DNA from: Phycisphaerae bacterium
GTDB taxonomy: Bacteria; Planctomycetota; Phycisphaerae; UBA1845
NCBI GenBank assembly: GCA_963666835.2
Contig: CAXXGO010000005.1
Location: forward strand, 160,001 to 224,000
Reading direction: 5' to 3'
DNA: 64,000 nucleotides
Numbering within the stretch: the stretch's first letter is position 1; each line of letters begins with the position of its first letter. Below are positions 2,625-40,986 of this stretch, one piece after another. The notes under the pieces are model-generated. The model made no database searches and was not told the origin of the DNA. It saw only the letters and a program-made list of their open reading frames with translations. The translations under genes were made by a program, and so were the position numbers.

Positions 2625-2670
2625 GCACTGCTCAAGAGCAGTGGCACACCTGAAGACCTTGGTGTGACGT
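2625..2670. repeat. REP-like palindrome family 1 (GCACTGCTCRAGAGCAGTGGCRCACCTG), copy 1
   Basis: Near-identical copies at 36512-36539 and 38140-38185; core palindrome CACTGCTC-AA/GA-GAGCAGTG; intergenic. Confidence 0.75.
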
Positions 2671-2674
2671 AGCA

Positions 2675-6325: not shown

Positions 6326-6329
6326 GCCG

Positions 6330-6716: not shown

Positions 6717-6806
6717 CCGTTCAAACCTCGCAAAACGGCCAACCGGCGACCTCGAGTGGTTTCACCGGGTTCTGTCCTTGTGGTGTCCATGCCATGTTTG
6801 AATCCA

Positions 6807-8822: not shown

Positions 8823-8875
8823 CGTCTGCTCTCCAACATTCCTGATCCGAGCTCCGTATCCCTGCGAGCCCGCCC

Positions 8876-10597: not shown

Positions 10598-10641
10598 AAC
10601 CAACTCCACTTCTTGGATTGCACCGTTCCTGCTCGGCCGAG

Positions 10642-12624: not shown

Positions 12625-13099
12625 TGCTTGCGAGTTCCTTGTTGTATTGCCTAATGATCTTGCGGATCTTGTCCGGGGTGACTCCGGCGTGAAACTCGCC
12701 GTTGATTGCCACCACGGGGGCGAGCCCACACGCTCCGATGCACGCCACCACTTCGATACTGAACTTCCCGTCGCGCGTCGTCTGGCCCGGTTCGATCTTG
12801 AGCGCATGCCGCAACGCGTCGAGCACCGCGGCCGATCCCTTCACGTGACACGCGGTTCCGCGACATACCTGGCAGTGCACTTTGCCCTTGGGCTGAAAAC
12901 GAAACTGGTTGTAGAACGTCGCGACTCCGTAGACCTTACTGACCGGCAGCTTCAGCCATCTTCCGACGTCGACCATAGCTTTGCGCGACAGGTAACCGTA
13001 CCGCTCCTGCACGGCCTGTAGGATCGGGATGAGTTGCTCCCGCCTTGCATCCGGAAACGTGTTCAGAACGTCCGCCACATCTTCGTGTTGGGCAATCAC
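12611..13099 (-). CDS. hydC: NuoE-like 2Fe-2S subunit (HydC/HndA)
   Basis: VATFYNQF, CRGTACHVKG, CIGACGLAP; GTG start overlaps the rex stop. Confidence 0.92.
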   Translation of the reverse strand: MIAQHEDVADVLNTFPDARREQLIPILQAVQERYGYLSRKAMVDVGRWLKLPVSKVYGVATFYNQFRFQPKGKVHCQVCRGTACHVKGSAAVLDALRHALKIEPGQTTRDGKFSIEVVACIGACGLAPVVAINGEFHAGVTPDKIRKIIRQYNKELASNGNE

Positions 13100-19425: not shown

Positions 19426-19657
19426 AGGGCTGAATTCCTCGGCGACGTGCAGTCCGGATTCCTGGTAAGTTACGTTCCCGGTAGGGCGGATGGCCCGAGC
19501 GTTAACTCCGAATCGTCCTTAAGCTGAATCCCGCAGCACGGCAGCCCGTTTGCGCGGCCGACAGACATTTACGCGGCACTCCGGTTCTTCGGCCCACGGC
19601 AATAGACTCCATCACCTTGCGGGCATTCTATCGGTTTGCGGCTGGAACCGTCAATCA

Positions 19658-19806
19658 AATCGCCGCATCGGCCTGTTCTTTGCCCGCGAAACCGACCTTT
19701 ACTGTAACCGCGTCCGCTATTACGATCCGCTGTTGAACTGTATTCTGAAGGCGGATCCGAACGGGAAGGGGATGGTGCCGGTGGATGGACTGGCCATGAA
19801 TGGAGG
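19658..19806 (+). pseudogene. Degenerate Rhs repeat-associated core fragment
   Basis: NRRIGLFFARETDLYCNRVRYYDPLLNCILKADPNG resembles the Rhs core consensus G..D.ETGLYYNR.RYYDP.LGRFL..DP.G; no YD repeats upstream. Confidence 0.65.
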
Positions 19807-19842
19807 GACTCGGAGTCGGAATGAAGCGTCGGAGGCACGTAC

Positions 19843-20250
19843 ATGTCAGCACGAGATGTCGGACCACGTATTCGCTGTCCGTCATGTAGCTTCTCTCTTA
19901 CGGAGAAGGAGCAGGTCGCCCGCGTTTGCGACAATTGTGGCAGGGTATTGGATGAGGAGTATCTTCGGATCAGCCGAGAAGACCTGGGAAGAAAGGAGCT
20001 TCGTGAGAAGCGAGTGATTCTCCTGCAACATGCTGTCGGTGGGCTTGGTATGATTATGATTGTGCTGGGGGTAGCCGCGGTCATTGCGAACAGGTCAAAC
20101 TGGTCGTGGATGACGAGACGGGGCCTCGGTTTCATCGTCCTCACCGGGGTTGTTATTGCCTGGCGATGGCGTGAGCGTGAACCGATGTGGCCTGTTCTTC
20201 TTCTGCTCGGGATCTTCTGGCTTGTGATGGCGTTGTTGTGGGGATTCTGA
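19843..20250 (+). CDS. Small membrane protein with N-terminal CxxC...CxxC zinc ribbon and about 3 TM helices
   Basis: CPSC/CDNC followed by hydrophobic segments; GGAGG upstream. Confidence 0.6.
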   Translation: MSARDVGPRIRCPSCSFSLTEKEQVARVCDNCGRVLDEEYLRISREDLGRKELREKRVILLQHAVGGLGMIMIVLGVAAVIANRSNWSWMTRRGLGFIVLTGVVIAWRWREREPMWPVLLLLGIFWLVMALLWGF

Positions 20251-20429
20251 TGCGGTGGCACGACGGGGGGAAGAAGGAGGAGAGGGCCGGGATCTGTTTC
20301 GCGGCACGCGCCCGCCTTGTGTAGAACAACTTGCGTACAAACGTCGCAGGCTAAGACAGGGACAGAGGAGAATAGGAGAGAAAGACCTCCTTTTTGGGTC
20401 CCGACGATGCGAAAACCGCGCTACAAACG

Positions 20430-20804
20430 CTAACGAGTGCGTTTAGTATCTGTAAGCTGTACATACAAGGTCTCCAGTTCCCCGTCGCCAGTTAGCACGT
20501 ATGCGACGTGCATGTAGTGTGTCTTTCCGTTGCCGAGCGGGACCACCACTCGATAATCGCCCGGTCCTTCTTCCGTGATCAGACAATCCGTACGGGTCGA
20601 TGCTTCGAGGTACGGCTCCACTTCGATAAGAGACGCGGCGTAGCGCCCATTCTCGGCCTTATACGCCGCAACCGCGTCACGGATGATCCCGGTATGCCAA
20701 TGCCGGACATTGCTTTCAATGTCAGGCACCAGGATCCACGCAGCAACGCAAAGGAGCACGGCTGCGCAGGAGTGCATCGCAAGTCTCCGTCTTGGAGTTG
20801 TCAT
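20430..20804 (-). CDS. Hypothetical protein with N-terminal TM helix
   Basis: ATG overlaps the stop of the upstream ORF (ATGA); AAVLLCVAAWILVP hydrophobic stretch. Confidence 0.5.
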   Translation of the reverse strand: MTTPRRRLAMHSCAAVLLCVAAWILVPDIESNVRHWHTGIIRDAVAAYKAENGRYAASLIEVEPYLEASTRTDCLITEEGPGDYRVVVPLGNGKTHYMHVAYVLTGDGELETLYVQLTDTKRTR

Positions 20805-21205
20805 AGCTGTCTGCTTTCGGCATCGAAGGCCCCCTGATTCTGCTTCTCTTGCAAGCATACCGTCCGCCGGCGTAACCTCCGCTCGACGGGCAAGAGCAAG
20901 CAAGCCAGGATCCCCGACCCGAGCATGACGAGCAGCACGGGAAACTGCAAGCAGAATCGCCCATCATTCAACTCCAACCGAAAGCTGCTATCCACATTGT
21001 CCCAAGCAATACTCGACCCTTCACTAAGGCCTCCATAGAGCCGAAAGGCCATCCCGCTACATCCGACTTCCCAGCCTTCGGCCAGGTCGATGCTCCATCG
21101 TCCTCCCGTGGTCATGACGACAACAACGTGAAACAACAGCGCACCACTCACAATGGTCGCAAGCCACCTCATCCGGCGGACGAATCGTACACGCTTGAGC
21201 ACCAT
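20801..21205 (-). CDS. Hypothetical two-TM membrane protein
   Basis: ORF with two hydrophobic helices; purine-rich RBS; 12 bp downstream of the preceding gene. Confidence 0.5.
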   Translation of the reverse strand: MVLKRVRFVRRMRWLATIVSGALLFHVVVVMTTGGRWSIDLAEGWEVGCSGMAFRLYGGLSEGSSIAWDNVDSSFRLELNDGRFCLQFPVLLVMLGSGILACLLLPVERRLRRRTVCLQEKQNQGAFDAESRQL

Positions 21206-21217
21206 GCCGTCTCTCTC

Positions 21218-22234
21218 CTACGGTTTGTCAGGGGCCTTTTCAGTGGATGATTGCCGCTCCTTCTTCTCCTTTGCCCGGAAGAGCTGTTCGTCTATCTTGT
21301 AACGAAGTTCCGCAACCTCCTGTGACGAAACGTCGGTTTGCGGATAACGCGCGATCGCTGTTTCCAGCACCTCGCGGGCACGCTGTGCATCATCGAGGCG
21401 AGTCAGCGACTTCACCGCCTGGAACAGCAGATTGTCTGCCAGCGGAAACGACTCGTGCTCATTGGCGAACTTCAGGGCGCGTTCGACCGCCGGCGTCCCC
21501 TCTTCCACGTCCTTCGTTCTCATCGCATAGAACGTGTCCCAGTAATCGACCCACAGCGAGAAGACTGAGTTCGGGCATTCCTCCCTGATGTACCGGAGCT
21601 TCCGCCGCACCTCGTCCGGGTCGCCGCCGCACGCCCAGGTAGCATCCGGCCCGGGTGTGCGGGAGACACCCTGCGCGTAGTATGGCACCTTGGGCAGTAT
21701 TTCCAAGACGCGGGCATCCTCTCCTTGTGCCTCAGCCACCGTCAGCTCAAACGGCTCCGATTGGACCACCGGAGGACAACGCAGCGCCCCGTAGACCCGA
21801 TATCGCCCCGGTGGCAGGAAGTGCGGTCCATTGGTCACACCTTGCCCATCTCCGCCTGCGAGGCCCTGCAGACACATCACATGATCCGTCTCTAGGCGTG
21901 CCCCCGGAGGGAACGGAGCTCCTGGAGCTCGAGCGCCGTCACCAGCGAGAAGGCGCAAGGGTTTGAGAGTATGCTCCCGTCCTTGCGCGTCGACCGCATA
22001 GAGCGTGAACAGGTCATAGGCCTTCATGCTGCTCCCGCGCTTGAAGTACATATGCCGGGTTGCGTCGCCACGGTTCTCCAGAACGATCCGAAGAACAAGT
22101 GGGCCGCCTTGCACCACAGTGTTCTCATACGGGCGGACCGCGAGATTCAAACCTCCACTATCCCCGCCAATCGGCGGGGCACTCCACAGTGTTGCCGATA
22201 GCAGCGTAATCATTCCGTAACTTAACATCGCCAC
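21218..22234 (-). CDS. Secreted partner-family protein, paralog 5 (Ig-like + TPR-like); orphan without its own peptidase cassette
   Basis: Signal-like N-terminus; FLPPGRYRV and CPNSVF/YPQT motifs shared with the other four paralogs. Confidence 0.7.
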   Translation of the reverse strand: MAMLSYGMITLLSATLWSAPPIGGDSGGLNLAVRPYENTVVQGGPLVLRIVLENRGDATRHMYFKRGSSMKAYDLFTLYAVDAQGREHTLKPLRLLAGDGARAPGAPFPPGARLETDHVMCLQGLAGGDGQGVTNGPHFLPPGRYRVYGALRCPPVVQSEPFELTVAEAQGEDARVLEILPKVPYYAQGVSRTPGPDATWACGGDPDEVRRKLRYIREECPNSVFSLWVDYWDTFYAMRTKDVEEGTPAVERALKFANEHESFPLADNLLFQAVKSLTRLDDAQRAREVLETAIARYPQTDVSSQEVAELRYKIDEQLFRAKEKKERQSSTEKAPDKP

Positions 22235-22329
22235 GCGCCTGCCTTCCTACATCGCCGATGTTGATTCCTTACTCCTGCTGGGTCTCTCCGGCACTTAGCA
22301 TCTCCTGCGGACAATCCTGCAACACACCT

Positions 22330-22387
22330 CGCAAGATCCACCAGGCAGCACCGAACGGAATCACCCGCTCGGTGCCGCGGGGTGGCA
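22330..22387 (-). repeat. Cassette-junction hairpin element, copy C (diverged)
   Basis: GCACCGAACGGAATCACCCG..GTGCCGCGGGGTGGCA shared with 24996-25080 and 29032-29116. Confidence 0.85.
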
Positions 22388-22514
22388 TTGGATCAGCAAC
22401 CATGTCCAACAATAGCGGCGTACGTTCCTGCCGTATCCGAGCCGGCGGGCGAGGAAGTACCCGCTCGACGGCAGATCCCCTCAACAAATACTCCCGACCC
22501 ACTCCCCGCCTCGG

Positions 22515-23462
22515 TCATCCGCTGATACCCCACGTCTTCAGCGCGGAAGCAGCCCTTGGACCGTAGTCCAAGGAGTACGGAGACTGCTCGACTCGCTCCA
22601 GGAGGCCCTTCGCCTTTCGCCGAATGCTTGCCGCCTCGGAAGAGGGTTTGTCCTGCTGACGCTTCAGTAGGTCGAGCTCCACAAGGGCGAGCGTGTAAGC
22701 CGCATTGGCCTCGGATTGCGAACGGACCTCGCCGCCGCAGTACGGCTCGTAGTACCGCCGCGCTACCGCTACGCGCTCGCGTAGGAGGTCATCGATGTCC
22801 ACGCCGGGGCCGCCGCGCAGTGCCGCCAGCTTCACCGTACCGAGGAATACACTCAGGCGGGCGGTATAAGCGGTGTCTGGATGCCGCTGGAGCATCCGTT
22901 CCACCCGCGGAGCCAACTGCCTGGCTCGGTTGTCTGTCGGGTTGAGAATGCCAATCGCAAACTCGACGCCAAGTTCCCGAATCATCGCAAGCAGCTCCCG
23001 TTCATGATCCGTAGGCTGCTCAACGACAACGTCGACCTTTGCGCCTGGATACAGTTCCACACTATAGGCGCCTGGGGCTCCGAAGACGTATTGCCTATCC
23101 TCCGTATTCCAGTATAGCATTGCTACGACCTGGACCACGCTCGCGCCACTGTCTTCCCGCATGACGGATGATCTGTTCAAGGACGTCATGACTACCGGAT
23201 TGGCGTTGAAGCTCAAAAGGTACTCTCTCTCGTTTATCAGTATACGACTAAAGAGTTTTGTCAAAACGCTCTCCAACCCGACGTGATCCGAGTGGGATTC
23301 TATTTCCACATCCAGGACTACAAACGCGGGTTGACAGGGCTTAATGTGAACCGTCTGAGGGGATGATATGCGGACGGAACGGATCATGGACTCGCCATGA
23401 GCCACCGGTGACATCAGACAGTGTGTTACAATAATGTACGTTAGATACCGACTTCCTACCAT
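22515..23462 (-). CDS. Secreted partner-family protein, paralog 4 (cognate of cassette 23456-25006)
   Basis: Start overlaps the cassette stop (ATGGTAG); signal peptide ending VAHG; YVFGAPGAYSV and HPDTAY motifs. Confidence 0.72.
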   Translation of the reverse strand: MVGSRYLTYIIVTHCLMSPVAHGESMIRSVRISSPQTVHIKPCQPAFVVLDVEIESHSDHVGLESVLTKLFSRILINEREYLLSFNANPVVMTSLNRSSVMREDSGASVVQVVAMLYWNTEDRQYVFGAPGAYSVELYPGAKVDVVVEQPTDHERELLAMIRELGVEFAIGILNPTDNRARQLAPRVERMLQRHPDTAYTARLSVFLGTVKLAALRGGPGVDIDDLLRERVAVARRYYEPYCGGEVRSQSEANAAYTLALVELDLLKRQQDKPSSEAASIRRKAKGLLERVEQSPYSLDYGPRAASALKTWGISG

Positions 23463-25006
23463 TTCTCTACCTCCCGAAAACGCTTCAACGTTGGACTTGT
23501 GAATGTCGTATGCACCTCCTGCAGATTGGCGGACATCAAACCGCCTTCGGCATGATGCTCTGCTTCCGTACCGGTGTTGCCAGCCGAGTGTCCGATCTCA
23601 TGGGCCAACACTTGATCCTCGAAATAATCATACTGCGGCACATCGGCGATCGTGGCCCTAAAGACAATACTGTCCCAATCGCCAATACTCCCCATCCATC
23701 CGCTTTGCTCCGTCTCGTTATACTCGGCGCCAGGCCAGAATGGCCCGGAGGGATACGTAGAGTTGTCCACCAGCGGATCGGGGTCCATATCCCGGTGGCC
23801 AGCCGCAACAACATCGCCGCCCGCCTGATACCCTGCCATGACAAAGGTCGTCCAAAACTGATTGCTCGAAAAGCGATCTTCCCGGGAGTCATTCCACCCC
23901 CAACCACTCGTCATCTGAGTCCACGTAACATAGAGATCGAACGGTATAGTCCGAGTGAGATTGTATTGTTCATCGAGCTCGACGATGTCGACGTACGCCT
24001 GGGCGAACGCGTTGCGGATGAAATCGTCTACCGTGTAGAAGTGGGGCAGGAGTGGCTCGATGGGATCATCGTCCCTCTCCACCGCCCAATGGCCTACCAG
24101 GGCATTGATCTCAGCGGCTGTAAGAACAACGTCGATATCGACCGTCGAACGCGCGTTGTTCCACACGGAATACTCCAGGCCAAGGGCCTGAAAGATCAAT
24201 GATCCCCCTTCGTATTGATGTTCACTTGCCCCTTGTGAGAACACTCCAAGGTCCAGCGTAGTGGTTGTTGCATTAGCAGTTCCTCCCGTTACATACACGC
24301 CGAACCAGTCCGGCTCCCGCTCCATCGGGTCTGTCGGTTCGCTAGTCATCGAATCGAACTCCACATGCAGCTTCCGCCAGACGGTCAGCATCTCGCTCCA
24401 GACGAGTGGGACGCTGTAGAAGGAGCCGCCGTAGGGCCCTGGATAGAAGTCGGGCGGATCACCGTCGGGAAACGAGCTGAATTCATCCGCGTGGGTCTGA
24501 GTCACTTGGTCCTCGCCGATTGCATCCTCCAGGCACGAGGCCCCGGCACGGTAGTTGTTGCCCGGCTGCATGGATACCTCGATCGTCACCACGGCTCGCC
24601 GATTGTCATCGGTTTTCGCGGCGTACGTGCCCACGGCCGGGTCCGGTTGGCCCGACGGCATGCGATTATCCGGCCCCGACTCGTCGTTGTCGATAAGCTC
24701 GACCTCGCGGACGGTGTTGACTCCCTGTGGTCCGTAGATCTGATCGAACGGATCATCCACGTCCCAGACCCTGAAGTGTACACCAATCCCAGCCACAGGC
24801 GGATGAACCGTGGCCACGAGGTTCACCTTCCGCCTGTCCGCCGCGAAGTCACCGTCGCCCGGATTCGTCAACCCCGGAAAAATCCGGCGTCCGCCGTTGA
24901 TCGGGCATCCGTCCAACTCCGGATTACCCGCCGCGGCCACCTCCCACTCGAGCCGGGTGACTTCGAAGACGAGGATCTCGAAACCTGCCCACGGCCAAGA
25001 CCGCAC
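23456..25006 (-). CDS. Headless (orphan) C-terminal metallopeptidase cassette 2
   Basis: Homologous to the last ~490 aa of 31528-35166 (NGG.RIFPG, FRVWDVDDPF, QPGNNYRA, MLTVWRKLH); HEIGHSAG...HH...GGLM; no signal peptide or RBS, and an in-frame TAA just upstream of the GTG. Confidence 0.8.
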   Translation of the reverse strand: MRSWPWAGFEILVFEVTRLEWEVAAAGNPELDGCPINGGRRIFPGLTNPGDGDFAADRRKVNLVATVHPPVAGIGVHFRVWDVDDPFDQIYGPQGVNTVREVELIDNDESGPDNRMPSGQPDPAVGTYAAKTDDNRRAVVTIEVSMQPGNNYRAGASCLEDAIGEDQVTQTHADEFSSFPDGDPPDFYPGPYGGSFYSVPLVWSEMLTVWRKLHVEFDSMTSEPTDPMEREPDWFGVYVTGGTANATTTTLDLGVFSQGASEHQYEGGSLIFQALGLEYSVWNNARSTVDIDVVLTAAEINALVGHWAVERDDDPIEPLLPHFYTVDDFIRNAFAQAYVDIVELDEQYNLTRTIPFDLYVTWTQMTSGWGWNDSREDRFSSNQFWTTFVMAGYQAGGDVVAAGHRDMDPDPLVDNSTYPSGPFWPGAEYNETEQSGWMGSIGDWDSIVFRATIADVPQYDYFEDQVLAHEIGHSAGNTGTEAEHHAEGGLMSANLQEVHTTFTSPTLKRFREVEKW

Positions 25007-25080
25007 TGCCGCAAGTTATCGCAAACCACCCGCGGCACCGAACGGAATCACCCGCCCAGTGCCGCGGGGTGGCACTAATG
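24996..25080 (-). repeat. Cassette-junction hairpin element, copy A
   Basis: 85 bp with 2 mismatches to 29032-29116; folds into a 21-bp stem on the minus strand. Confidence 0.9.
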
Positions 25081-25986
25081 TAATGACTACGCCGGGCCGT
25101 CAAAACAACTCCCGATCCCGGTATTCGGCCCCTTTCTTCTTCGGTGCTTTTGTCTATATCTATGGACTTGACGCGCGGACCTTCTGACGCTCCGCATTCT
25201 CGAAGCGTTCCCTGACGACCGGGATCCCTTCGCGCGCCTCGTCAATGAGACCCTGAACGGTACCTTGTCCGGGAGCCGCGACCTTGGCCGCTGACAGCAA
25301 CCGCTGCGCCGCTTCGAAATCCAGAGCAATCATGCGCAAGTATCCGTGCTGATACAGCGCACGCGGTTTCAGATAATCATCCGCGTGCTCGGCAGCTAAC
25401 TCGAATGCTCGGAAAGCCCGTGCTGACTTGTCGCTCTGCATTATCAACTCGGCCCGGCGCGTTCCCTCTTCAAGGTCGTCTCGACGTTCTCCTTGCTTCC
25501 TCTCGTCCCGTAGCACATTCCTGGCATCGCCAAGGCATAACCCCGAATAACAACAGCCCGCAAAGTACGCGGCGTATGGCGCGTAACTGGATTCCGGAAA
25601 CTCCTGTGCCAAAGCCGCCAGAGAATCAGCCCAGCGCAACGCGGGTTCGAACCCGCCGCACTGCCCGACAATCGCGCCCGGCTCCCTCGCTCGTGTGGCC
25701 TCTAAGATCTCTCCGACCACCAGCAAGGCACGCCAGTCAGCACCGGCAGGACTTGCCGCCCAGGTTCGCCTTCTCTCATCGGGGAGGTTCGCGAGCGGAT
25801 CGCTCCCAAGCAAGTCTGCAAGGAAGTCCGACTCGCTAACACGTTCGATGAACGCTCGGTCCGGCTCACCGGCCGGCAGAACCGTAACGCTCCGCTCAAT
25901 TGTAAGAGGCTCGGTCTCATCGTCCTTGAATGCAACCTGCCAGCGCAGCCGGCATTCGCCCGGGTGTTCGAAAAGGAATCGCTCTT

Positions 25987-27028
25987 CCTGATTCTCTACT
26001 TGACTCCGGCGGCTAAGTACGGTATTTGTTAGGGCTTACGATTTCATGGTTCATGGAGGAGGTCGGCCATGTCTGACGAGATTCGCCCGAAGCATCCCGT
26101 GCCCAAGATCTTGGATGTAGCGTCGTTTATGCGTCGCTTCGGAGATGATGCGGCCTGTGCCGCGTATCTGCGTAAAGCTCGCTGGGGACCGAACCTGGAA
26201 CGGTTCGTCTGCCCGGACTGTGGGCATAGCCGCGGATGGTGGCTCCCGACCCGGGGGCTCGTCGAGTGCCGGGAGTGTCACCATCAGACCTCACCGACGG
26301 CCGGCACGGTGTTTCACGGTGCCCGCGTGCCGCTCTGGAAGTGGTTCTGGGCTATGTATCAAGAGGCTCACTCGAAGAAAGGCCTCGCGGCCACGGCGTT
26401 GGCCAAGCAGATCCAGGTCTGCTACCAGACTGCCTGGATGATGCTGCAGAAGCTCCGCGAGGCCATGCGTCAACGATGCCAACGTTATGTCCTGCAGGGA
26501 CTTGTGGAGGTCGACGAGACATACGTTGGCGGCCGGGAACCGGGTCGGCCGGGGCGTGGAGTGGAGAAGAAGGTCCCAGTGGGAGTGGCCGTCGAGCTTG
26601 ACGAGAACGACCGGCCTAAGCGAATCGCCATTCAGGGACTGAAAAGCGTCGACGCTCGAAGCCTGAGGGGTTTCACGACGAGACACGTAGCGAAGGGCTC
26701 ATGTCTCCGGACGGACGGATGGGGAAGTTACGTTTCAGTGGCCAAGGCCGGGTACGAGCACGAGGCAATCGTGACGGGCGGTGGGAAGAATGCGGTTCAA
26801 ATTTTCCCCTGGGTTCACACCTTCATCGGCAACCTGAAGCGGATGATTGTGGGCACATATCACAGCGTTTCGCCCAAACACCTCGACCGTTACCTGGCCG
26901 CGTTCACCTATCGGGCCAACCGTCGCTGGATGGAAGCAAAACTCTTCGATCGCCTTGTTATCGCGGCCGTAGCTGCCAAACCACTGACATTAAAGGAGTT
27001 AACCACCGGAGCGAGGTAGAGAATCAGG
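25987..27028 (+). mobile_element. IS1595-family insertion sequence, 1042 bp
   Basis: Imperfect ~30-bp TIRs (left CCTGATTCTCTACTTGACTCCGGCGGCTAA; right, reverse-complemented, CCTGATTCTCTACCTCGCTCCGGTGGTTAA); 8-bp direct repeat TCGCTCTT at 25979-25986 and 27029-27036. Confidence 0.95.
26069..27019 (+). CDS. IS1595-family (ISXO2-like) transposase, possibly ISSod11-type
   Basis: Zn ribbon CPDC/CREC, VEVDETYVGG, RTDG, WVHTFIGNLKR, YL..F.YR.NRR; GGAGGAGG RBS; stop codon lies inside the right TIR. Confidence 0.95.
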   Translation: MSDEIRPKHPVPKILDVASFMRRFGDDAACAAYLRKARWGPNLERFVCPDCGHSRGWWLPTRGLVECRECHHQTSPTAGTVFHGARVPLWKWFWAMYQEAHSKKGLAATALAKQIQVCYQTAWMMLQKLREAMRQRCQRYVLQGLVEVDETYVGGREPGRPGRGVEKKVPVGVAVELDENDRPKRIAIQGLKSVDARSLRGFTTRHVAKGSCLRTDGWGSYVSVAKAGYEHEAIVTGGGKNAVQIFPWVHTFIGNLKRMIVGTYHSVSPKHLDRYLAAFTYRANRRWMEAKLFDRLVIAAVAAKPLTLKELTTGAR

Positions 27029-27374
27029 TCGCTCTTTTCCTACACCCCAATGTGCCGCAAGCGGCGTCAAAACGATCGTCTTCTCCTCAGAGTACGCTAT
27101 TGATCCGAGAAACTCGCCCGTTCGGTCGGGATCGGTATCAGCGAATTCATACTTCTCCCCGTCGGTGCTTGTCCAAAGCGACACATTCCTGACTTCACCG
27201 CGGTTCGGGAAAGCCATCCTCTGTACGATACAGCTCTTCGAACCTACCGTATTCTCCACCTGTGCATTTGGCTCGGTGGCAGCGGCATTGTATGCCGGTG
27301 CAAACGTCAGAGAAACCACCACAGCCAAACACCGTACCGTAAGTTGTTTCGCGTGCATTATCATATCTCTCAGA

Positions 27375-29042
27375 TTAAGGTCCACAGTAGTTTCTAAGTC
27401 TGTTGAGGCTCTCGCCAGCGAAGGGCAAGTCCTGCCCTGGGCCCTTCGGGTCCATCAGTCCGACCGGCGGACCTTCGCCCTCGTAGGTGTGCGGAAGCCC
27501 AAGTGTATGCCCGACCTCGTGAGCCACGGTGAAACGCTCCTGGCGTTCTGATTCCGCAGGGCCCAGCGATATTGCCTTGAAGACGACGGCTAGCCCGGTG
27601 GCGGAATCCGGTAGCAGCACGTGCGCCTTTGTGTTACCGTCAGGGTGACTACAAATGCCGAGTGTTGTCCCAGGATCTGCCAGCTCTGAATCTGGGTCGC
27701 CATCCTGGTTTGCCTCAGCTTGCCATGCGGACACGACCATCACAGTCCAGTACGCAGAAGTAGACTTGGGTAAGTCTCTGACTCCCGGAGCCGTTACGTC
27801 ATCCCAGAGGTCCTTGCCATAGAAATCAGTGACCCCAAAGCCCTGGTTTCGCCGAAACGGAAGACTACCCAAAGCGCTCAAACCGCTCTCATGCACGGGA
27901 TGGATGAAGGCAGATCGATAGCGAACCTCGAGAGCACTCAGATCCGGAGGTTCAAGTGCGCCTGGCCCACCGGTGTACAGGCCGTCACATCCCCATACTT
28001 GGGCCGCGAATGTCCCCTCCTCCGACAGATCGTCATCACTGAGCACAGCCTTGCCGCTTTGCACACCTTGCAGACAAGCCAGGCCGCTTATACCGCCACC
28101 GCAGTCAGGGATATTGATAGTTACTTCGTCTTTGAAGTCCAGGTCGTCGATGATCCCCTCATCGGTGGTGTAGTCGACGATGCGCCCGACGACCAGTGGG
28201 TTTCCGGCCGAGTCGCTGACTTCGGCATAACCATGCAGAAACTGTTGGTCATCCGTATCCGAATCGTCCGCCGGCGGATCATCCACTTCGAATCGCACTT
28301 GCGTGGACACCGGTCCCTGCTCTGGCTCGCTCCAGTCCATTTCGAACGTATTCTGTCCGAACGTTGGTCGCATCATGCTATCCGTCTCCACGTGCAGCTT
28401 CCGCCAGACCGTCAGCATCTTGCTCCAATATAGTGGGGTCCGGTAGCTGAACGCGTTGCCGCCTCTGTGGAACTTCGGCGGATCGCCGTGGAGCGATGTG
28501 CAGAGTTCGTCGGCGTGGGTCTGGGTCACCTGGGGTTCGCCGATTGCATCCTCCAGGCACGAGGCCCCGGCACGGTAGTTGTTGCCCGGCTGCATGGATA
28601 CCTCAATCGTGACCACGGCACGCCCATTATCATCCGTTTGCGCGGCGTATCTGCCCACGGCCGGGTCCGGCTCGCCCGACGGCATGCGATTGTCCGGCCC
28701 CGACTCGTCGTTGTCGATAAGCTCGACGCCCGCAACCGGCTGCACACCGTCGCCGGGCGCACCGTTCGGGCCGTAGACCTGATCGAACGGATCATCCACG
28801 TCCCAGACCCTGAAGTATACCCAGATGTCTCGCTGCGGCGGCTCGACGTACGCCGCGAGCTTCACCTTCCTCCGGATCACCCCCAACTGGTCGCCCGGAT
28901 GCGTCAACCCCGGGAAGATCCGCTTGCCGTGGTTGATCGGACATCCGTCCAACTCCGGATTACCGGCCGCGGCTACCTCCGACTCTAGCCGGGTGACCTC
29001 GAAGACGAGGATCGGGACGCTTGCCGACCGGCAAGACCGCAC
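27375..29042 (-). CDS. Headless (orphan) C-terminal metzincin cassette 1
   Basis: Same homologous start point as cassette 2; MLTVWRKLHVETDSM; HEVGHTLGLPH plus GLMD Met-turn; no signal peptide or RBS, and an in-frame TAA just upstream of the GTG. Confidence 0.8.
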   Translation of the reverse strand: MRSCRSASVPILVFEVTRLESEVAAAGNPELDGCPINHGKRIFPGLTHPGDQLGVIRRKVKLAAYVEPPQRDIWVYFRVWDVDDPFDQVYGPNGAPGDGVQPVAGVELIDNDESGPDNRMPSGEPDPAVGRYAAQTDDNGRAVVTIEVSMQPGNNYRAGASCLEDAIGEPQVTQTHADELCTSLHGDPPKFHRGGNAFSYRTPLYWSKMLTVWRKLHVETDSMMRPTFGQNTFEMDWSEPEQGPVSTQVRFEVDDPPADDSDTDDQQFLHGYAEVSDSAGNPLVVGRIVDYTTDEGIIDDLDFKDEVTINIPDCGGGISGLACLQGVQSGKAVLSDDDLSEEGTFAAQVWGCDGLYTGGPGALEPPDLSALEVRYRSAFIHPVHESGLSALGSLPFRRNQGFGVTDFYGKDLWDDVTAPGVRDLPKSTSAYWTVMVVSAWQAEANQDGDPDSELADPGTTLGICSHPDGNTKAHVLLPDSATGLAVVFKAISLGPAESERQERFTVAHEVGHTLGLPHTYEGEGPPVGLMDPKGPGQDLPFAGESLNRLRNYCGP

Positions 29043-29116
29043 TGCCGCAAGTTACCGCAAACCACCCGCGGCACCGAACGGAATCACCCGTCCAGTGCCG
29101 CGGGGTGGCACTAATG
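29032..29116 (-). repeat. Cassette-junction hairpin element, copy B
   Basis: 85-bp near-identical copy of 24996-25080. Confidence 0.9.
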
Positions 29117-29190
29117 CCTTAAGTGTGGTCGGCCTTCAGGTATATCTCTTATTCAGCCAAACCGCCCGCGCAGTCATGCTTCGTGCAACA

Positions 29191-30123
29191 CTATCGTTCT
29201 TCTGTCTGGCGGGTCTCCTTCAGTAGTTGCGCCGCTTTCTGAGCAGACTTACTATTCGGAAATTCCGATATGAGAGTCTGCGCCACCCGGCGCGAGTCCG
29301 CAATATCGTCGGCGAGCGCATAAGCGACAGCCAGATCAAGGAGGGCTTTCTCTCGAAGCGGATGCCAGCCATCGAAAACAGATGCCGCCTTCCTCAGCTC
29401 CGTGGCAACTGGTGCCCATACCCGTGGATCGGCTCCGCTGTTATGCGCCGCAAAGGTGGTCTTGTATTGCATCAATGCAAGGGATACGATTGCGTACTCA
29501 CCGTATGGGGTGTCGGGGAACTCGCGAGCGAGATGATCAAAACGTCGAAGTGTCTCCTCGCTTCCCTCATGTTCGAGAATCGCAGTCAGCGCAACCGGAA
29601 AGCTGCTGCGAAAAAACTCCGCAGCCTCTCGCCGGGTCTTCCCCGGGTTGCGAACCGTGATCGCGATGGGGTTGGACTCGAGACCGTATTCGCGGTCGCG
29701 TACGAGCAAGGTGTACGCGCCCGTGTGCTCCGAGTGTACAAAATCCCCTCCACGATCACGCTCTTGGGGGAATGCAAGGCCCGATGTCGTGAATTCGCTG
29801 GCTGGTCCGTCAGTCGGCACGAACTCCGCGCCGCACAGCAGGCCTTTGCACACCATCTTGTTGTTTGGATCTTGAAGCACGATATCAAAACGTCGACGTA
29901 GCCTGCGCAGTTGCCTGGCGGCCTCGCGGGGATCATCTGCACCCGGACGGAACGGTTCCTCCAGATGTACAGTGACCTCAACGGCAAGTGGTTCGTATAG
30001 CAGGAAGCTCTCTTTACAGACGTTTGCCGTCAGCGAATCACCGTTGGCATGCGGTGCTATGAGCGTCAAACAGAAAACCAACGTGAGTCCGAAATTCAGT
30101 GGTCCAATCGACCTTACGCACAT
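29191..30123 (-). CDS. Secreted partner-family protein, paralog 2
   Basis: Signal peptide ending HANG; HTGAYTLLV, FPDTPYGEY and FPNSKSA motifs; ATG at 30123 after GGAG. Confidence 0.72.
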   Translation of the reverse strand: MCVRSIGPLNFGLTLVFCLTLIAPHANGDSLTANVCKESFLLYEPLAVEVTVHLEEPFRPGADDPREAARQLRRLRRRFDIVLQDPNNKMVCKGLLCGAEFVPTDGPASEFTTSGLAFPQERDRGGDFVHSEHTGAYTLLVRDREYGLESNPIAITVRNPGKTRREAAEFFRSSFPVALTAILEHEGSEETLRRFDHLAREFPDTPYGEYAIVSLALMQYKTTFAAHNSGADPRVWAPVATELRKAASVFDGWHPLREKALLDLAVAYALADDIADSRRVAQTLISEFPNSKSAQKAAQLLKETRQTEER

Positions 30124-30163
30124 AATGTTAAACTCCAAAAGGATGCTAATCGACTTCTGTAAT

Positions 30164-30335: not shown

Positions 30336-31457
30336 CTATGGACTGGTTGCTTCCCTTGCCTTTCGGGCTTCTATCTTTTCGCGGAAACGTTGCATTTGCC
30401 CCTCAAGCTTGTCCGCGATTCCCGGCCCACCAATGTCCGGACACTGTTGGCGCAAGGCGCCCAGGTATTCGCTAGTCTTCTCCCATTCCTGCGCAAGACC
30501 GTGTAGCCAGACCAAGTTCTCCAGCGCCGCCGTGCGCGGCCAGACATTGGCGTCTTTCGCCATCGTGAGATAATGCAGTGCTTTCACGTAGGCGGGATGC
30601 GCTCGGGCTCTTTCGGGATCGCGCTCGAGCCAACCCGCCAAACTTGCTTCGTGTTCCAGGGTCTTGACGTATACCAATCCAAGGTACCGCGCGATGTAGC
30701 CCGAGTACACTGAATCCGGGTAACGCTCCAGCGTTTTCGCCAATGAATCGACCAGCTCCATTTCTCGCTTGTCATCGGGGTCGATAAGGTACGGCTTGGT
30801 CTCGCTGGTGATCTGTGCCAGAAGCAGAATTCCCTCCTGGTCCAGCCCCTTCTCCGCCTCCGGTGCGTTCAGGTCCAAATGGTCCGCATCGTCTCCGATG
30901 TGGTAACGCAGTGCGATCAGTTCAAGCTGCGCGAGGCATTCCTCGTTAACACGTGACATCGGAAGCACGGTCACCCGGGTCTCATTGCTGTAGACGAGCG
31001 CCTTTCCTAGGCCCGAATAGAAGTTCCATCGAAGATGGTACTCACCGGGGTTCGGAAATACGTAGTCGTTTCCAAAATCCAGTAACACCAGGACATCGCC
31101 CGTAGTTGTTTTGCGCGGCCCCAATTTTTTCTCGGTGCGTTGGGGGCCGCTACGTTCCAAGGAAAGCGAGTGCTCGCTATACGGTCCATTATCGCAGGAC
31201 GTTTCAAGGGCCATTCGCACCGGCGCACCGCCAGGCCGCACGAGCAGCGTAAGCGGCTCGTCCCGCAGATTCCTCACTCTGACGTGGGCGATGATCGGTT
31301 CCCGCGCCTCAAAGGTCGAACGTTCCAGGTTGACATCAAACGCCACGACCTGTGAAAACGCAAGTGCTTGCTCGCCGTTCGCCATCTGACCTAATGCTGC
31401 CGCGACGGTCACCCCTTGCAACAACAAGCCTTTCGTCAAGTTGGTAGTCAAAGTCAT
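30336..31457 (-). CDS. Secreted partner-family protein, paralog 1 (cognate of the full-length gene)
   Basis: AAGGAG RBS; signal-like N-terminus; YVFPNPGEYHLRW and YPDSVYS motifs; helical TPR-like C-terminus. Confidence 0.75.
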   Translation of the reverse strand: MTLTTNLTKGLLLQGVTVAAALGQMANGEQALAFSQVVAFDVNLERSTFEAREPIIAHVRVRNLRDEPLTLLVRPGGAPVRMALETSCDNGPYSEHSLSLERSGPQRTEKKLGPRKTTTGDVLVLLDFGNDYVFPNPGEYHLRWNFYSGLGKALVYSNETRVTVLPMSRVNEECLAQLELIALRYHIGDDADHLDLNAPEAEKGLDQEGILLLAQITSETKPYLIDPDDKREMELVDSLAKTLERYPDSVYSGYIARYLGLVYVKTLEHEASLAGWLERDPERARAHPAYVKALHYLTMAKDANVWPRTAALENLVWLHGLAQEWEKTSEYLGALRQQCPDIGGPGIADKLEGQMQRFREKIEARKAREATSP

Positions 31458-31527: not shown

Positions 31528-34500
31528 CTATGGCTCAACATACTCGCGGAGCGTCTTAAGGCTCTCCGCAAGAAACGCCGGCCCCTGTTCAGTCTCGTCC
31601 ATTAAGCCACCGTCGCCGGGAATTGCATGAGCGCCCAAATGTGGTGCGCCTAGCGTGTGGGCAATCTCGTGCGCTACAACCCGCGGCGCCTGAACATCAG
31701 CGTAACCGTCTCGCAACGTCTCGCTGAAGACCGCCGCCATCCCGGTGTATGAGTCGCCCCAAAGCAACGGGGGCGAAGTACTTCCCTCGCGATGCGTCGT
31801 TGCCCCCTTCGTACCCGTGCCTTCTCCGTCACAATCGGCACTCGCCTCCGCCTGGAACGCAGAGAAGATATAAACGGTCCAGAAGGTAGCCCTCGAAACC
31901 GGCAGCCCGCGGAGCACCAAGCGCCCGGGATCCCAGTTCGCTTTGGTTTCGGGCCTGAAGTTCTTGTAGAAAGGATACGCCCCTTCGGAGGTGTACTGCG
32001 GCTCTACCACGGGAAGAATATAGGCAGGCTCATACACCTCCTGGAGCTGAGATGTGTCAGGAAGCAATAGGAAACCGTTTGGAGGTGCGCCCACGCCAAT
32101 GATACTGCCGACGACGCCGGCGGTGAAGAGGGCCTCGTTGCCCAAGTCGTCGTCGCTAGCCACGAAGTTTCCTGAACTGGGGCGCGCTCCCCAAGTGGCC
32201 TCCTTGATATCCGTACGAATTGGGTCGGCCCCGGCCGAGGACTCGTGGTCGATGATCCTGCTGATCAGATCAGGGAATCCCGCAGCTTGGATGCGTATGT
32301 ACCCATTCTCGAGATCGTCGTAGAAGGGCTGATCCGATATGTCGACCCAGAGTTGGTTGCCTATGAAACGCGGCTCGTTCCATTGCCCGGTAACAGTGTT
32401 CTCGGCGAATGTGGGGCGGGCCATGCTGTCGGTCTCGGCGTGCAACTTCCGCCAGACCGTCAACATTTCGCTCCAGACCACCGGGGTTTTGTAGCCGGAC
32501 CAATCCCTGCCGAGGGTGTTGATTGCGTCCGCGTCCGCCTGATCCACCTGCTTCACGTGGACCGGACCGTCCGTGAGCACTCCGTCCAGGCAGGTCGCGG
32601 CCGCCCGGAAGTTGTCGCCCGGTTGTCGCGAAACCGTAAACGTCATTCGAGCCCGCCCGCTGGAGTCTGTCGTGGCAGAGCCGGTCTTATTACCCGATGC
32701 ACCTCGATTGTCGCAGCCAATGGCATCGTTGTCGATCACGTCAACGTCCGGCATGTTCGGATGAGACTCATTGAACGGATCGTCCACGTCCCAGATCCGG
32801 AAGTTGACGCCTACCCCGGAGATCGGCGGCTCGATGATGGCCTCCAACGCTACACTCCGCCGGGCGTTCGTGAACAGATCGTCCTTGTCCAACTTGCCCG
32901 GGAAGATGCGCTTGCCGCCGTTGTTCCGACACTTGTCCAGCGGCAGATTGTCGCCTGCCCCCTGAACCTCGGATTCCCTCGCCGTGTCCCATCTTAATGA
33001 CGACACCTTCACCACCGGGATCGGTTCAGATCGCCCGTAACAATGCACCGGAGGATCGTGTACCGGGTTACAGAGCCGGTAATCGCACACAAGCACGCCA
33101 CAGGCCGTAGAAGCCACAATACCCTCGGCGAAGGCCGTAGTCGGCACCGGCCAATCGGAACCGCCGGGCCATCGCGAGGACTTGTTTGCCTGCTTGTACA
33201 TGTTCACGCCCTCCGCGAGAATGTGGATATGAACACCGTCCGAAGGCGGATCGGGGCAGTGATCTCCTTCTTCCGTCGGACAGCCGGCCGTGTATACGTG
33301 AAGCTCCCGAAGATCGTCCTCGTTGTTGACGGGACCGAACTCTTCACAGTCCGGCACGCCGTTGCGATTGTCGTCGTCATTATTGACGTGCAGAAACGGG
33401 GGGAGGTCGCGGAAGAGCTCACAACCGTTCGGACCACAACCCGTCTCCGGATCTTCCGGCGGCCAGCGCTCCGTGTAGAAGCACTCCTCATACTCATCGC
33501 CACAGGACACGTCCGTGCACGGATCCGGTCTCTCGCAGCAGAAGGTCTCCCAGTCGTCATCCTCGTCGGGTTCACAACATACGCCGTTACAGCAGTCTTC
33601 GTTGCAGCATTCACTGTCCGTCGGACAGCACTCGCCCTCGCAGCATTCTCCGTTCTTGGGGCAGCAATAGTAATCGGGCTGTCCGCCTTGGTCTCGCTCG
33701 CAGCATTGCTCCCCCGGAAAACAGTACGAATCGCCGCAGCAAACGACCCAGTAAGGACGGCAAATCGTCCCGCCATCCGGCAGGTCACAGCACTGTCCGT
33801 CGCAGCACTCGTCGTCGCAGCAGTCCCAGCCGGGCTCGCAACACTCCCCATCACAGCAACGTTCGTTAGGCTCGCAGCATTCATCAACACAGCATTCCTG
33901 GTGAAGTCCGCAGCACCCGCCCGGACAGCACCGCTCCCGCTCACAACACGACTGGCGAGCGCAGCAGATAGTCCCGAGGCGACAACTACCCTCGATACAG
34001 CCCGGAGTGTAGCAGTCTGTAAGATCGTCGAAACCGGGCGGAAGATTCGGCGTCCCACCACCGATGCCAACGGGAAGGCAGTCAATATACGGAGCATCGT
34101 TCGGGATCAGTATGACTTCCCGGGTCGGATCGGGCTGACCGGATGAGTCGAACGCCAGCAGGTACTCAATCATCTCCACGCTGGCTCGTTCCCACGTGGT
34201 GGCGTCTTCGTCTTGCGACCAGGCCGCGTCTATCGCGTTGGAGACCACCGCGACCTCGGCGGCCAGGCTCTGCGCGTCGATTCCGAGATCGCGCTCGAGG
34301 TTTACGACCGCATGGCCGACGTCCAACAGATCGAAAATCGGGCGTTCGAACACGAAGAGCCGATGGCTCTCGAAATCGTGCCAGAGCGCGACGTACGTGC
34401 CGCTCGTCCCGTCGACCGCCTCGGGGCCGGATGCTGCGTCAACGTCATCTTGGTCGGCCGGTCGTTGCTCGGGTTCGAAAGCGACTGACTCGTCGGCCCA

Positions 34501-35166
34501 TCTTTCGGATTCCGCAACGCTCGGCTCGGCAGGCCATTCCTCATCCTCCCAAGCAGTCGGATCACTGGCCCACTCCTCGGAATCCGTAGCGGTCGGTTCG
34601 TCGGCCCATTCCTCCGATTCTAACGCAGTCGCGTCATCGGGGTCTTGCCATTGACCCGCGTACTCCGGCGGCGCGCCCGGGTAGTCGAGCGGATCCGCAG
34701 ATCCGTGCGGGCCCGGGTCGTCAAGCTCCTGCCACTGATCCGCATACTCCGCCGGTGGGCCGGGATTCTCCGCGGTGCCGCCGCCGTCGTGGATCAAGAG
34801 GATTCCGACGTCGGTAACCACCCGAATCCGCAGCACACCCCGCACGGGCTCGTCCGGGTCGGGGCCGTCCCGCGGATCGACCACCGCAACGTACGGCTCT
34901 TCCCCGGTAAGCTCGGGGCCTTCCGACGTGCGGGCCTCGACCTGCGGGAAGAACGCCAGCGCGATCAGCATCCCCAACCCCACGGCCAGGGCTATCCCGC
35001 CTGCAATAGGTCGGAGTACCCCCCACGGTCGCCCAGTCAAACGCGGAGGCCGCGCAGACTGCCCATGCTCGAAAGAGCCCGCAAGCCCCGGTCGCCCCCG
35101 CGAGCACGGAGGCCGCGGCACGCGCCTCAGGCGGCTTCGATCTCGTCCGTGATACGTCCTTTTCAT
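31528..35166 (-). CDS. Full-length membrane-anchored/secreted multidomain protein: TM, acidic Trp repeats, Cys-rich repeats, conserved linker domain, C-terminal metzincin
   Basis: GIALAVGLGMLIALAFF helix; SEEWADEPTA-like repeats; CC-x-CC run; NNDDDNRNGVPD; HEIAHTLGAPH...GGLMD; start placed at MKRTYH. Confidence 0.82.
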   Translation of the reverse strand: MKRTYHGRDRSRLRRVPRPPCSRGRPGLAGSFEHGQSARPPRLTGRPWGVLRPIAGGIALAVGLGMLIALAFFPQVEARTSEGPELTGEEPYVAVVDPRDGPDPDEPVRGVLRIRVVTDVGILLIHDGGGTAENPGPPAEYADQWQELDDPGPHGSADPLDYPGAPPEYAGQWQDPDDATALESEEWADEPTATDSEEWASDPTAWEDEEWPAEPSVAESERWADESVAFEPEQRPADQDDVDAASGPEAVDGTSGTYVALWHDFESHRLFVFERPIFDLLDVGHAVVNLERDLGIDAQSLAAEVAVVSNAIDAAWSQDEDATTWERASVEMIEYLLAFDSSGQPDPTREVILIPNDAPYIDCLPVGIGGGTPNLPPGFDDLTDCYTPGCIEGSCRLGTICCARQSCCERERCCPGGCCGLHQECCVDECCEPNERCCDGECCEPGWDCCDDECCDGQCCDLPDGGTICRPYWVVCCGDSYCFPGEQCCERDQGGQPDYYCCPKNGECCEGECCPTDSECCNEDCCNGVCCEPDEDDDWETFCCERPDPCTDVSCGDEYEECFYTERWPPEDPETGCGPNGCELFRDLPPFLHVNNDDDNRNGVPDCEEFGPVNNEDDLRELHVYTAGCPTEEGDHCPDPPSDGVHIHILAEGVNMYKQANKSSRWPGGSDWPVPTTAFAEGIVASTACGVLVCDYRLCNPVHDPPVHCYGRSEPIPVVKVSSLRWDTARESEVQGAGDNLPLDKCRNNGGKRIFPGKLDKDDLFTNARRSVALEAIIEPPISGVGVNFRIWDVDDPFNESHPNMPDVDVIDNDAIGCDNRGASGNKTGSATTDSSGRARMTFTVSRQPGDNFRAAATCLDGVLTDGPVHVKQVDQADADAINTLGRDWSGYKTPVVWSEMLTVWRKLHAETDSMARPTFAENTVTGQWNEPRFIGNQLWVDISDQPFYDDLENGYIRIQAAGFPDLISRIIDHESSAGADPIRTDIKEATWGARPSSGNFVASDDDLGNEALFTAGVVGSIIGVGAPPNGFLLLPDTSQLQEVYEPAYILPVVEPQYTSEGAYPFYKNFRPETKANWDPGRLVLRGLPVSRATFWTVYIFSAFQAEASADCDGEGTGTKGATTHREGSTSPPLLWGDSYTGMAAVFSETLRDGYADVQAPRVVAHEIAHTLGAPHLGAHAIPGDGGLMDETEQGPAFLAESLKTLREYVEP

Positions 35167-35313
35167 GATTCTGAGTCTCCGAAAGTGAGTCCGGCCCGCG
35201 ATCGAGTGAGCGCGAACCTCAAGCCCAAAGACCGCCGAATCCCGGGGAGGCAGTCGACGTGAATACTGCGAACCGACCCATGGGACGCTCGCTTCAAACG
35301 TCCTCATATTCTG

Positions 35314-36511: not shown

Positions 36512-36539
36512 GCACTGCTCAAGAGCAGTGGCGCACCTG
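36512..36539. repeat. REP-like palindrome family 1, copy 2
   Basis: GCACTGCTCAAGAGCAGTGGCGCACCTG. Confidence 0.75.
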
Positions 36540-36685
36540 CAAAGTGGGGTGTCGTGTGGTGCACTGGTGTTGCCGGGGGCGACCGCCCGGATACGATACG
36601 GTCCTCGACGGTGCGGATGGTCGCGCCACGTAAGGCGATGGACGGACGTCAGGCAAGGCGTTTCGGGGGTAGAGAATCGGTTCAG

Positions 36686-38139: not shown

Positions 38140-38185
38140 GCACTGCTCGAGAGCAGTGGCACACCTGAGAACCCAGGTGTGACGT
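38140..38185. repeat. REP-like palindrome family 1, copy 3
   Basis: GCACTGCTCGAGAGCAGTGGCACACCTG...GGTGTGACGT, same extended second stem as 2625-2670. Confidence 0.75.
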
Positions 38186-38356
38186 GCTGCTACGACGCAG
38201 ACCTGTTCCGGGGCAGTCTCCGTGTTTGCACGACATTCTGTGTGGGGGTCCGGCGGTTCCTTCTTACTATAAACAGCCCCCTGGGCGACCGATAAACCAG
38301 AGTGCTTAGGCTGCAGGTGCGTATTCTGCGGTGGTTTTCCATCGACGGGTTCTCGT

Positions 38357-40078: not shown

Positions 40079-40146
40079 ATCGCCTGATGAGAACGCCGGC
40101 GGTTGTCGCAGACGCACTTCGCCGGGAGATTACCTGGGAGTAACGG

Positions 40147-40959: not shown

Positions 40960-40986
40960 CGCGGGCAGGTGGGGTGGAGACCACGG

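Follow-up and report, generated by a model that had tools for sequence, protein, structure and literature searches.

A lineage-restricted hairpin element ahead of headless cassettes in three likely polymorphic-toxin arrays of a Phycisphaerae bacterium

We analysed a stretch of 64,000 nucleotides from a Phycisphaerae bacterium (the window; positions 160,001 to 224,000 of contig CAXXGO010000005.1, assembly GCA_963666835.2) and, within it, a hairpin element that recurs at the junctions of gene cassettes. The locus is read on the minus strand. It opens with a main full-length gene of 1259 amino acids (31528..35307), which has a membrane or signal stretch, Cys-rich repeats, a conserved middle domain and a C-terminal HEXXH motif and carries no hairpin. 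Behind it stand its partner gene (30336..31457, likely an immunity gene; the same linkage is seen in genome G180) and a second, TPR-like partner gene (29191..30138). Hairpin W29 then precedes headless cassette 1 (27375..29042), which is homologous to main-gene residues 756-1259 (38% amino acid identity) and ends in a metallopeptidase-like HEXXH. The partner gene of cassette 1 (25160..27385) follows, split by an IS1595-family insertion on the plus strand (25979..27028, transposase 26069-27019). Hairpin W25 precedes headless cassette 2 (23456..25006; homologous to main-gene residues 763-963, 42% amino acid identity), which has a different C-terminus, also with HEXXH. The partner of this cassette (22515..23462) precedes hairpin W22, and behind W22 stands an orphan partner gene (21218..22234), homologues of which follow same-family cassettes in G018, G124 and G042. 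A main gene and, behind it, headless cassettes that differ in their C-termini and have a partner gene each: this is the layout of polymorphic-toxin arrays given in PMC3482391 and PMC3967940. Homologues of the partners likewise stand behind homologues of the toxin tips in relatives. The locus is likely such an array, the labels toxin and immunity being read from gene order and from HEXXH, Rhs and protein-arginine deiminase (PAD) domains.

An earlier note on this DNA had described two 85-bp copies directly ahead of the headless cassettes, a diverged third copy before the orphan partner and a spacing of about 75-130 bp behind the partner stop codons. All three observations were recovered. Between 24996-25080 and 29032-29116 there are 2 mismatches in 85 positions, a 43-nt core of the third copy (22345-22387) matches the other two at 91-93%, and the repeat ends lie 75, 80 and 128 nt after the partner stops (open reading frame (ORF) ends 29191, 25160 and 22515). 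The repeat is real, but 85 bp is not a discrete unit: some 30 nt of it are the start of the duplicated cassette head, into which the likeness continues (82% identity over about 640 bp). The discrete unit is a hairpin of 49 nt, accompanied in most copies by about 55 nt upstream. In the window the hairpins, all on the minus strand, are W29 (29061..29109; 21-22 bp stem with one bulged base and a loop of 4-6 nt; 83 bits with model R1), W25 (25025..25073; 84 bits) and W22 (22338..22386; 63 bits, outer stem diverged). W29 lies 82 nt past the end of the TPR-like partner and W22 lies 129 nt past the end of the cassette 2 partner.

The proposed minus-strand fold was reproduced as well. On this strand, the coding one at this locus, the window copies reach -46 to -51 kcal/mol against only -35 to -40 on the plus strand, a difference of 10-11 kcal/mol. 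None of 200 shuffles folded as well on the minus strand, and about 0.1% of 3000 random genomic 61-mers reached -37.5. The inner-arm variants UGGGCGG, UGGACGG and CGAGCGG each pair with CCGUUCG, as had been stated, but the outer stem of W22 has two stem-breaking changes that the note omitted. Rfam gave no match at the gathering threshold in the window.

A profile hidden Markov model and a covariance model agree on 17 hairpin sites at five loci of this genome (60-85 bits), with no further site at E<=1. Three copies are in the window, eight (R) in an array at C6:1.06-1.08 Mb whose main gene has an Rhs core over the cut-off, four (B) in a third array at C6:2.24-2.26 Mb, and two are solitary. The idea that copies are restricted to cassette borders is therefore borne out by 15/17 copies, which lie within the three toxin-type arrays, and this, with the small number of loci, rules out a dispersed REP and the genome-wide REP/MITE that the note had named as a refutation. 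Thirteen headless cassettes show homology to the main gene of their array, and every one is directly preceded by the hairpin. A fourteenth headless fragment, in the third array, has no hairpin in front and no main-gene homology; it contains a PAD domain (L014, G000:C6:2252969-2254912; PF03068, 209 bits) and is followed by three near-tandem partner genes. Inside the main genes neither a copy nor a half-site was found. The first copy of every array comes after the partner gene(s) of the main gene, and in the Rhs and C6:2.24 Mb arrays the DNA homology to the main gene begins 10-70 nt after the hairpin. From the preceding stop to the hairpin we measured 7-246 nt (14 copies).

The orientation is the same as that of the flanking genes in 16 of the 17 copies, and the sense-strand RNA folds better than the antisense in all 17. 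No replication-strand preference is apparent: the element is on the G-rich strand at three loci and likely on the opposite strand at two, where the skew is weak. One solitary copy lies among small membrane genes at 5 kb from an Rhs remnant. The other, at C6:2312.9k, is the most diverged; here (L016, G000:C6:2312898-2312958) a short inverted repeat in the left arm has been made perfect by a two-sided change, while the long stem is degraded. Copy X is the only one in which a shorter alternative hairpin (columns 3-19) pairs perfectly.

Identity was compared region by region, in pairs within and between arrays, for ten copies that align without gaps. The right arm is the most conserved (0.99 within and 0.99 between arrays), followed by the left arm (0.93/0.87). 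Values for the 40 nt upstream are 0.63/0.58 and 0.75/0.71, for the loop 0.61/0.36 and for the sequence beyond column 57 0.76/0.24. As the stems are conserved while equally old neighbours drift, they appear to be held by selection. On the transcribed strand, Watson-Crick pairs have turned into G-T in 18 cells against A-C in 4 (p=0.004, the cells not being independent of each other); in four copies whose junction lies at the 3' foot, the foot columns were left out of this count. The substitutions are structure-preserving insofar as the inner-arm pairing is kept, but they are one-sided wobble changes, none of them compensatory on both sides. Selection on a single-strand structure, as the note had proposed, is thus supported by conservation and wobble bias and not by covariation; the note had named missing covariation as a ground for rejecting its idea, and this objection applies in part. 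A coding constraint was rejected as the cause of the conservation, since the reading frames through the hairpin differ between arrays. The hairpin also outlives deletions of the head right behind it (R2 and R4). We conclude that the hairpin is real and not a chance structure, and that it is a lineage-restricted, selected junction element.

Twelve of the 17 copies keep the upstream part of about 55 nt, which starts with a decayed form of a 12-nt repeat. This repeat has 42 exact copies in the genome, also forms gene-less doublets, and brackets in inverted orientation an intact Y1/HUH gene of the TIRYT type (contig C1:1181367-1182146; PF01797 over the cut-off, motifs NHWH and YVEQN, NF047646 at 64 bits, under its cut-off of 80). 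The left repeat of that gene is followed by a promoter-like sequence, TTGACA-17-TAGGAA. Both the left part of these 12 copies and the left end of this TIRtron, when aligned to it, score above all 300 shuffles, and the left part likely originated as one end of a transposable element of the TIRYT (HUH) type. A stop codon of a long same-strand ORF lies between 20 nt before and 30 nt after the repeat start in 10 of the 42 exact repeats, against 1.1 at random. The junction element itself starts within a few bases of the upstream stop in R1, R3 and R8, and in R5 and R7 the upstream reading frame enters it.

Within the window, the left part of W25 (25078..25132, minus strand) has a degenerate TIRYT-type terminal repeat at 25108-25119 and a TTGACG hexamer at 25098-25103. 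The left flank of W29 (29114..29160, minus strand) is a decayed version of the shared upstream part: its homology to the core copies is significant (p<=0.003), with 47-56% identity to Rhs-array and C1 copies and 33% to R7. In W22 and the four B copies the left part has no significant homology to the core group (p 0.05-0.38); the W22 flank resembles B2 and B4 at 47-49%, against a background of about 30%. TTGACG or a near match occurs at a fixed distance in about nine copies and is missing in the five copies without a recognisable left part. These five copies nonetheless retain the hairpin, and the exact 12-nt terminal repeat is found in just three copies, which indicates that preservation concerns the hairpin and not the transposase end.

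The note had suggested looking for a linked tyrosine recombinase or HUH enzyme. Neither a tyrosine recombinase nor a Y1 gene adjoins any of the arrays, and the best integron integrase match in the genome (92% complete) reaches 89 bits with TIGR02249 against a cut-off of 265; the TIRYT-type HUH gene that shares the element's left end is located elsewhere in the genome. The hairpin is absent beside all eight Y1 genes inspected, and the arrays contain no closing (paired inverted) terminal repeat. Elsewhere on contig C6, inward-facing pairs of TIRYT terminal repeats surround 3-4 kb of accessory genes (G000:C6:16413-20396 and 38347-41398), among them a zinc-ribbon membrane gene like the Rhs partners; it is possible that TIRYT mobilised this cargo.

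Copies of different arrays are 99% alike in the right arm, but 5 nt beyond the stem the similarity has fallen to 24%. At columns 50-57 the copies R2, R4, R7, W22, C1 and X pass into sequences that differ from each other, in R4 with a microhomology of 7 nt. In R5 and R8 the head sequence is lost about 100 nt further downstream. On the left, the flank of W25 is 60-73% identical to most Rhs-array copies but reaches 44% with W29, the adjacent copy that has the same head. Hairpin B3 matches R8 at 98% and B1 and B2 at 86%. This suggests that the element was moved or exchanged repeatedly between arrays, with its 3' foot as a possible hot spot. Ordinary recombination together with selection that keeps the stem can, however, yield much of this pattern. 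A group II intron in the Rhs array was discarded as junction factor, as it is inserted in an immunity-type gene and not at a hairpin, the nearest of which follows after about 160 nt. This intron (L011, G000:C6:1065006-1067032) sits in a zinc-ribbon gene and has partial copies at C6:567 kb and C7:26 kb.

Among the genomes searched, the element is known from this one, and no convincing copy turned up in relatives. BLAST found none in 40 relatives. The covariance model, with which 36-53 candidates were scored per genome in partly overlapping samples, gave four weak matches (25-30 bits) in unrelated context in 149 genomes of the order, none in 149 genomes of the phylum and two weak matches in 100 genomes of the family. 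Pattern scans, which may omit records of or near the own genome, caught 91 stretches in genome contigs and 33 in metagenome contigs; the palindromic pattern picks up generic hairpins, and on re-scoring these 124 loci reached at best 25 bits and had no common flanks. A single match at 28 toxin loci of relatives (E=0.32) is in the opposite orientation and was not counted.

The window's protein family occurs in 12 of 300 genomes of the class. At three of the nine relative loci with upstream DNA inspected, the cassette start lies behind a transposase-type repeat (an anecdotal count, with no background control): right behind a whole TIRtron in G220, behind a REP-like doublet in G124 and behind a repeat bearing the GGGGTCAG motif in G042. 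In G220 (L180, C190, minus strand) no more than a few bases separate the end of the complete TIRtron from the start of the headless fragment, which looks like an insertion mid-gene. The other inspected loci, including G104 and G239, have no junction repeat at the cassette start. Two window-family cassettes in G104 (L181, C27) have a 745-bp head that is 99.6% identical, with the same in-frame TGA. Among the headless Rhs frames of 20 relative loci a common non-coding element was seen only in G427, with a different sequence: here (L191 and L192) the cassettes have about 200 nt of non-coding DNA and a hairpin of their own ahead of the heads, unrelated to the present hairpin.

Strain data show that the locus varies. 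In runs X3/X4 the IS1595 element is missing and the empty site joins 25978 to 27029 with 8 letters that fit both sides, so that the insertion is polymorphic; in the same runs the cassette head differs directly behind the W25 position. One contig of run X5 joins 19503 to 23130, which removes W22 and the orphan partner. The contigs of five runs contain no clear joint at a hairpin foot, a weak negative because contigs break at repeats. An X3 joint starting at 22396 lies 10 nt away from the 5' foot of W22, the sequence in between being unresolved, and was not counted.

Taken together, we tentatively favour the following explanation. The element of about 110 bp ahead of headless cassettes in three likely polymorphic-toxin arrays combines a left part homologous to a TIRYT end with a stem-loop that selection likely maintains as an RNA hairpin, which would limit read-through into silent cassettes. 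A TIRYT enzyme, or an earlier similar one, would have placed the element behind immunity-type stop codons, as apparently happened with the plain terminal repeats. The arrays would then have grown and exchanged modules through ordinary homologous recombination over the hairpin plus the cassette head. On the transcript the hairpin might act as a U-poor terminator, as a pause site or as a block to 3' nucleases; in the last case it would protect the upstream toxin-immunity message and leave the downstream heads poorly expressed. We prefer this combination of TIRYT placement, growth by recombination and an RNA brake because the orientation follows transcription (16/17) and apparently not replication, and because the hairpin outlasts the terminal repeat. 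In its favour are also the better fold of the sense RNA in all 17 copies, the conserved stems, the wobble bias, the likeness of the left part to the TIRtron end and the nearness of the plain repeats to stop codons. A G+C-rich hairpin on the transcribed strand behind a gene, in sense orientation in 16/17 copies, is moreover what one looks for in an intrinsic terminator.

Several observations weigh against this explanation. The eight bases after the stem contain five T in 4/17 copies, four in 6 and at most three in 7 (range 1-5), and the terminator scan listed none of the window copies. A stem of 21-22 bp is long for an intrinsic terminator. The wobble bias is not significant when counted by distinct sites (9/18 against 4/18, p=0.16) and becomes weaker without the diverged copy, and none of the 22 pairs has changed on both sides among the 17 copies; the covariation score equals that of the shuffled control. 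At C6:2312.9k the solitary copy runs antisense to the genes next to it. No such element occurs in the genome's other Rhs arrays or in the Rhs loci of relatives (n=20), which shows that arrays of this kind do not need it. A role in RNA also leaves unexplained why the 3' foot of the stem is where many of the right-hand junctions lie. Caution also comes from attC hairpins, which were once held to be terminators and, according to the accessible part of PMC8876359, have been shown not to be.

The weak U-tract and the sharp right boundary keep a second explanation in play, which we regard as possible though rather unlikely: the hairpin would be a single-stranded DNA site that the genome's TIRYT or another HUH enzyme cuts and joins in trans, cleavage at the 3' foot joining the element to the middle of a toxin gene and so making, capturing or reshuffling headless cassettes. 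The loss of similarity within 5 nt of the stem, the six copies that join different sequence at columns 50-57 and the TIRYT-type left part are in agreement with such a site. The same applies to the left flanks, which are mosaic across arrays (W25 Rhs-like, W22 B2/B4-like, B3 98% identical to R8), and to the cassettes of G220, G124 and G042 that start after a mobile repeat; DNA also tolerates G-T pairing. However, the terminal repeat has decayed in most copies, the hairpin stands beside none of the eight Y1 genes, the main genes lack a half-site and no joint at the foot was met in the five runs (contigs only). The R4 junction can be explained by its microhomology without any enzyme, and the G/T composition of the outer right arm accounts for its invariance. 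In addition, G104 and G239 have loci without such a junction repeat, and the replication strand is apparently mixed. The RNA brake and the HUH site are not mutually exclusive. An extended version, which we consider clearly unlikely, is an integron-like system without integrase: a domesticated TIRYT would cut the shared site of terminal repeat plus hairpin at the 3' foot and join toxin-gene fragments behind immunity genes. If true, such a system would stock several unrelated toxin arrays from one pool, would explain the origin of orphan cassettes and would give TIRYTs their first host function.

An element without any function is less probable still. A passive, low-copy miniature repeat could have inserted into variable islands on one or a few occasions and then been duplicated together with the cassette heads; it was found in this genome alone among those searched, two of the three arrays are paralogous, and recombination that homogenises heads would carry the adjoining hairpin along. 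Such a repeat does not explain why arrays with unrelated heads still share stems at 99% (right) and 87% (left) identity while the equally old flank is at 58-71%, why the hairpin survives the deletions that removed the heads of R2 and R4, or why there is a wobble bias. We give even less credit to an internal promoter inherited from the TIRtron, with the hairpin as a 5' stem-loop that stabilises the orphan immunity message. The TTGACG hexamer at its fixed distance in about nine copies would fit, as would the terminal repeat and TTGACR-17-TAGG.. promoter-like ends of the genome's TIRYT genes, but the element has no -10-like hexamer at 16-18 nt, the promoter scan found none at the window copies and the hexamer is missing in the five copies without a recognisable left part. 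An integron attC site, in a cassette array without a nearby integrase, was considered because a strand-asymmetric hairpin with a bulged base follows each gene in a single orientation. The probability of this is negligible: the RYYYAAC/GTTRRRY pair frames the stem in 0/17 copies and the integrase match stays far below the cut-off, which together rule it out, and the cassettes are gene fragments with long common heads.

Among known systems, the nearest analogues are terminal inverted repeats (TIRs) fused to stem-loops, orphan Rhs modules and rAID-1 arrays. TIRtrons, TIRYT and the TIR repeat families are described in PMC3733652 and PMC6006769 (subclass 2.1), as far as these sources were available, and terminal repeats fused to unrelated stem-loops are reported there for Pseudomonas (PMC3733652). 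Like these, the present element has at its left end a GGGGTC-type terminal repeat that in this genome flanks an intact Y1/HUH gene in inverted orientation and forms gene-less doublets. It differs in having one decayed terminal repeat and no closing repeat, in a G where the published consensus GGGGWSAS, as given in the available text, has A, and in that the hairpin is not found at the TIRtron, its copies being confined to toxin/immunity islands and all facing the cassette. With REP, REPIN and BIME elements and their RAYTs it shares an intergenic, imperfect and strand-asymmetric hairpin shortly after stops and a host genome that abounds in Y1 genes and REP families. In contrast to these, it has 17 copies and not hundreds, is not dispersed, never forms doublets and is not beside a Y1 gene; the invariant GTAG/CGTC foot is lacking, columns 1-4 varying among the copies.

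Orphan Rhs-CT/immunity modules and polymorphic-toxin cassettes are treated in PMC3967940 and PMC3482391, the accessible parts of which also list HEXXH peptidases among the toxin tips. The present arrays resemble these in having a main gene with its partner, then headless C-terminal cassettes with partners, and shared heads through which homologous recombination could act. Those parts describe no non-coding element conserved at the junctions, whereas here one hairpin serves Rhs and non-Rhs arrays, and the window heads have only 38-42% protein identity to the present main gene, which is too far for easy recombination. The rAID-1 systems of Bacteroidales (10.1101/471110) and the attC arrays of integrons (PMC8876359), judging from the available portions, likewise combine a repeated intergenic motif in one orientation with arrays of immunity-type genes; the present arrays lack a heading recombinase gene and attC core sites and hold toxin fragments besides immunity-type genes. 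RAYT and Rhs are treated separately in the accessible part of 10.1101/2024.07.17.603846. No paper describing such an element was found in a search judged from titles and the starts of abstracts, with subscription journals mostly outside its coverage.

What is new here is the homology, as judged by alignment, between the 5' flank of 12/17 copies and the terminal inverted repeat of a TIRYT; the element as a whole combines known parts. We know of no demonstrated function for TIRYT transposases. The parts of the literature examined do not settle by what route orphan toxin cassettes acquire their 5' junctions or whether these cassettes are held silent. In this genome a single conserved site lies at the cassette junctions of Rhs as well as non-Rhs arrays, and it bears the end sequence of an intact TIRYT that is encoded there too. 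TIRYT and element thereby form a concrete candidate pair of enzyme and substrate, and the hairpin is a concrete terminator candidate. If the element is only an RNA hairpin, it would be a modest case of a transposon end that was co-opted to punctuate toxin arrays in one lineage.

Some minor observations concern the main genes and the rest of the window. Over 1.3 kb, the 5' part of the window main gene matches the main gene of the C6:2.24 Mb array at 87% identity. Their products (31528-35307 and G000:C6:2236232-2239570) have in common an acidic, Cys-rich N-terminal part of secreted type (59-62% amino acid identity) and differ in unrelated C-terminal halves; neither has a Pfam or NCBIfam match, and they are possibly a polymorphic toxin carrier that has perhaps not been described. 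Elsewhere in the window, positions 1269-12807 hold an [FeFe]-hydrogenase and maturation cluster (HydF, radical SAM) with a hydrogenase-domain histidine kinase. A different REP-like palindrome occurs at 2625-2670, 36512-36557 and 38140-38185, and the same family flanks a Y1 gene at C6:345.7 kb.

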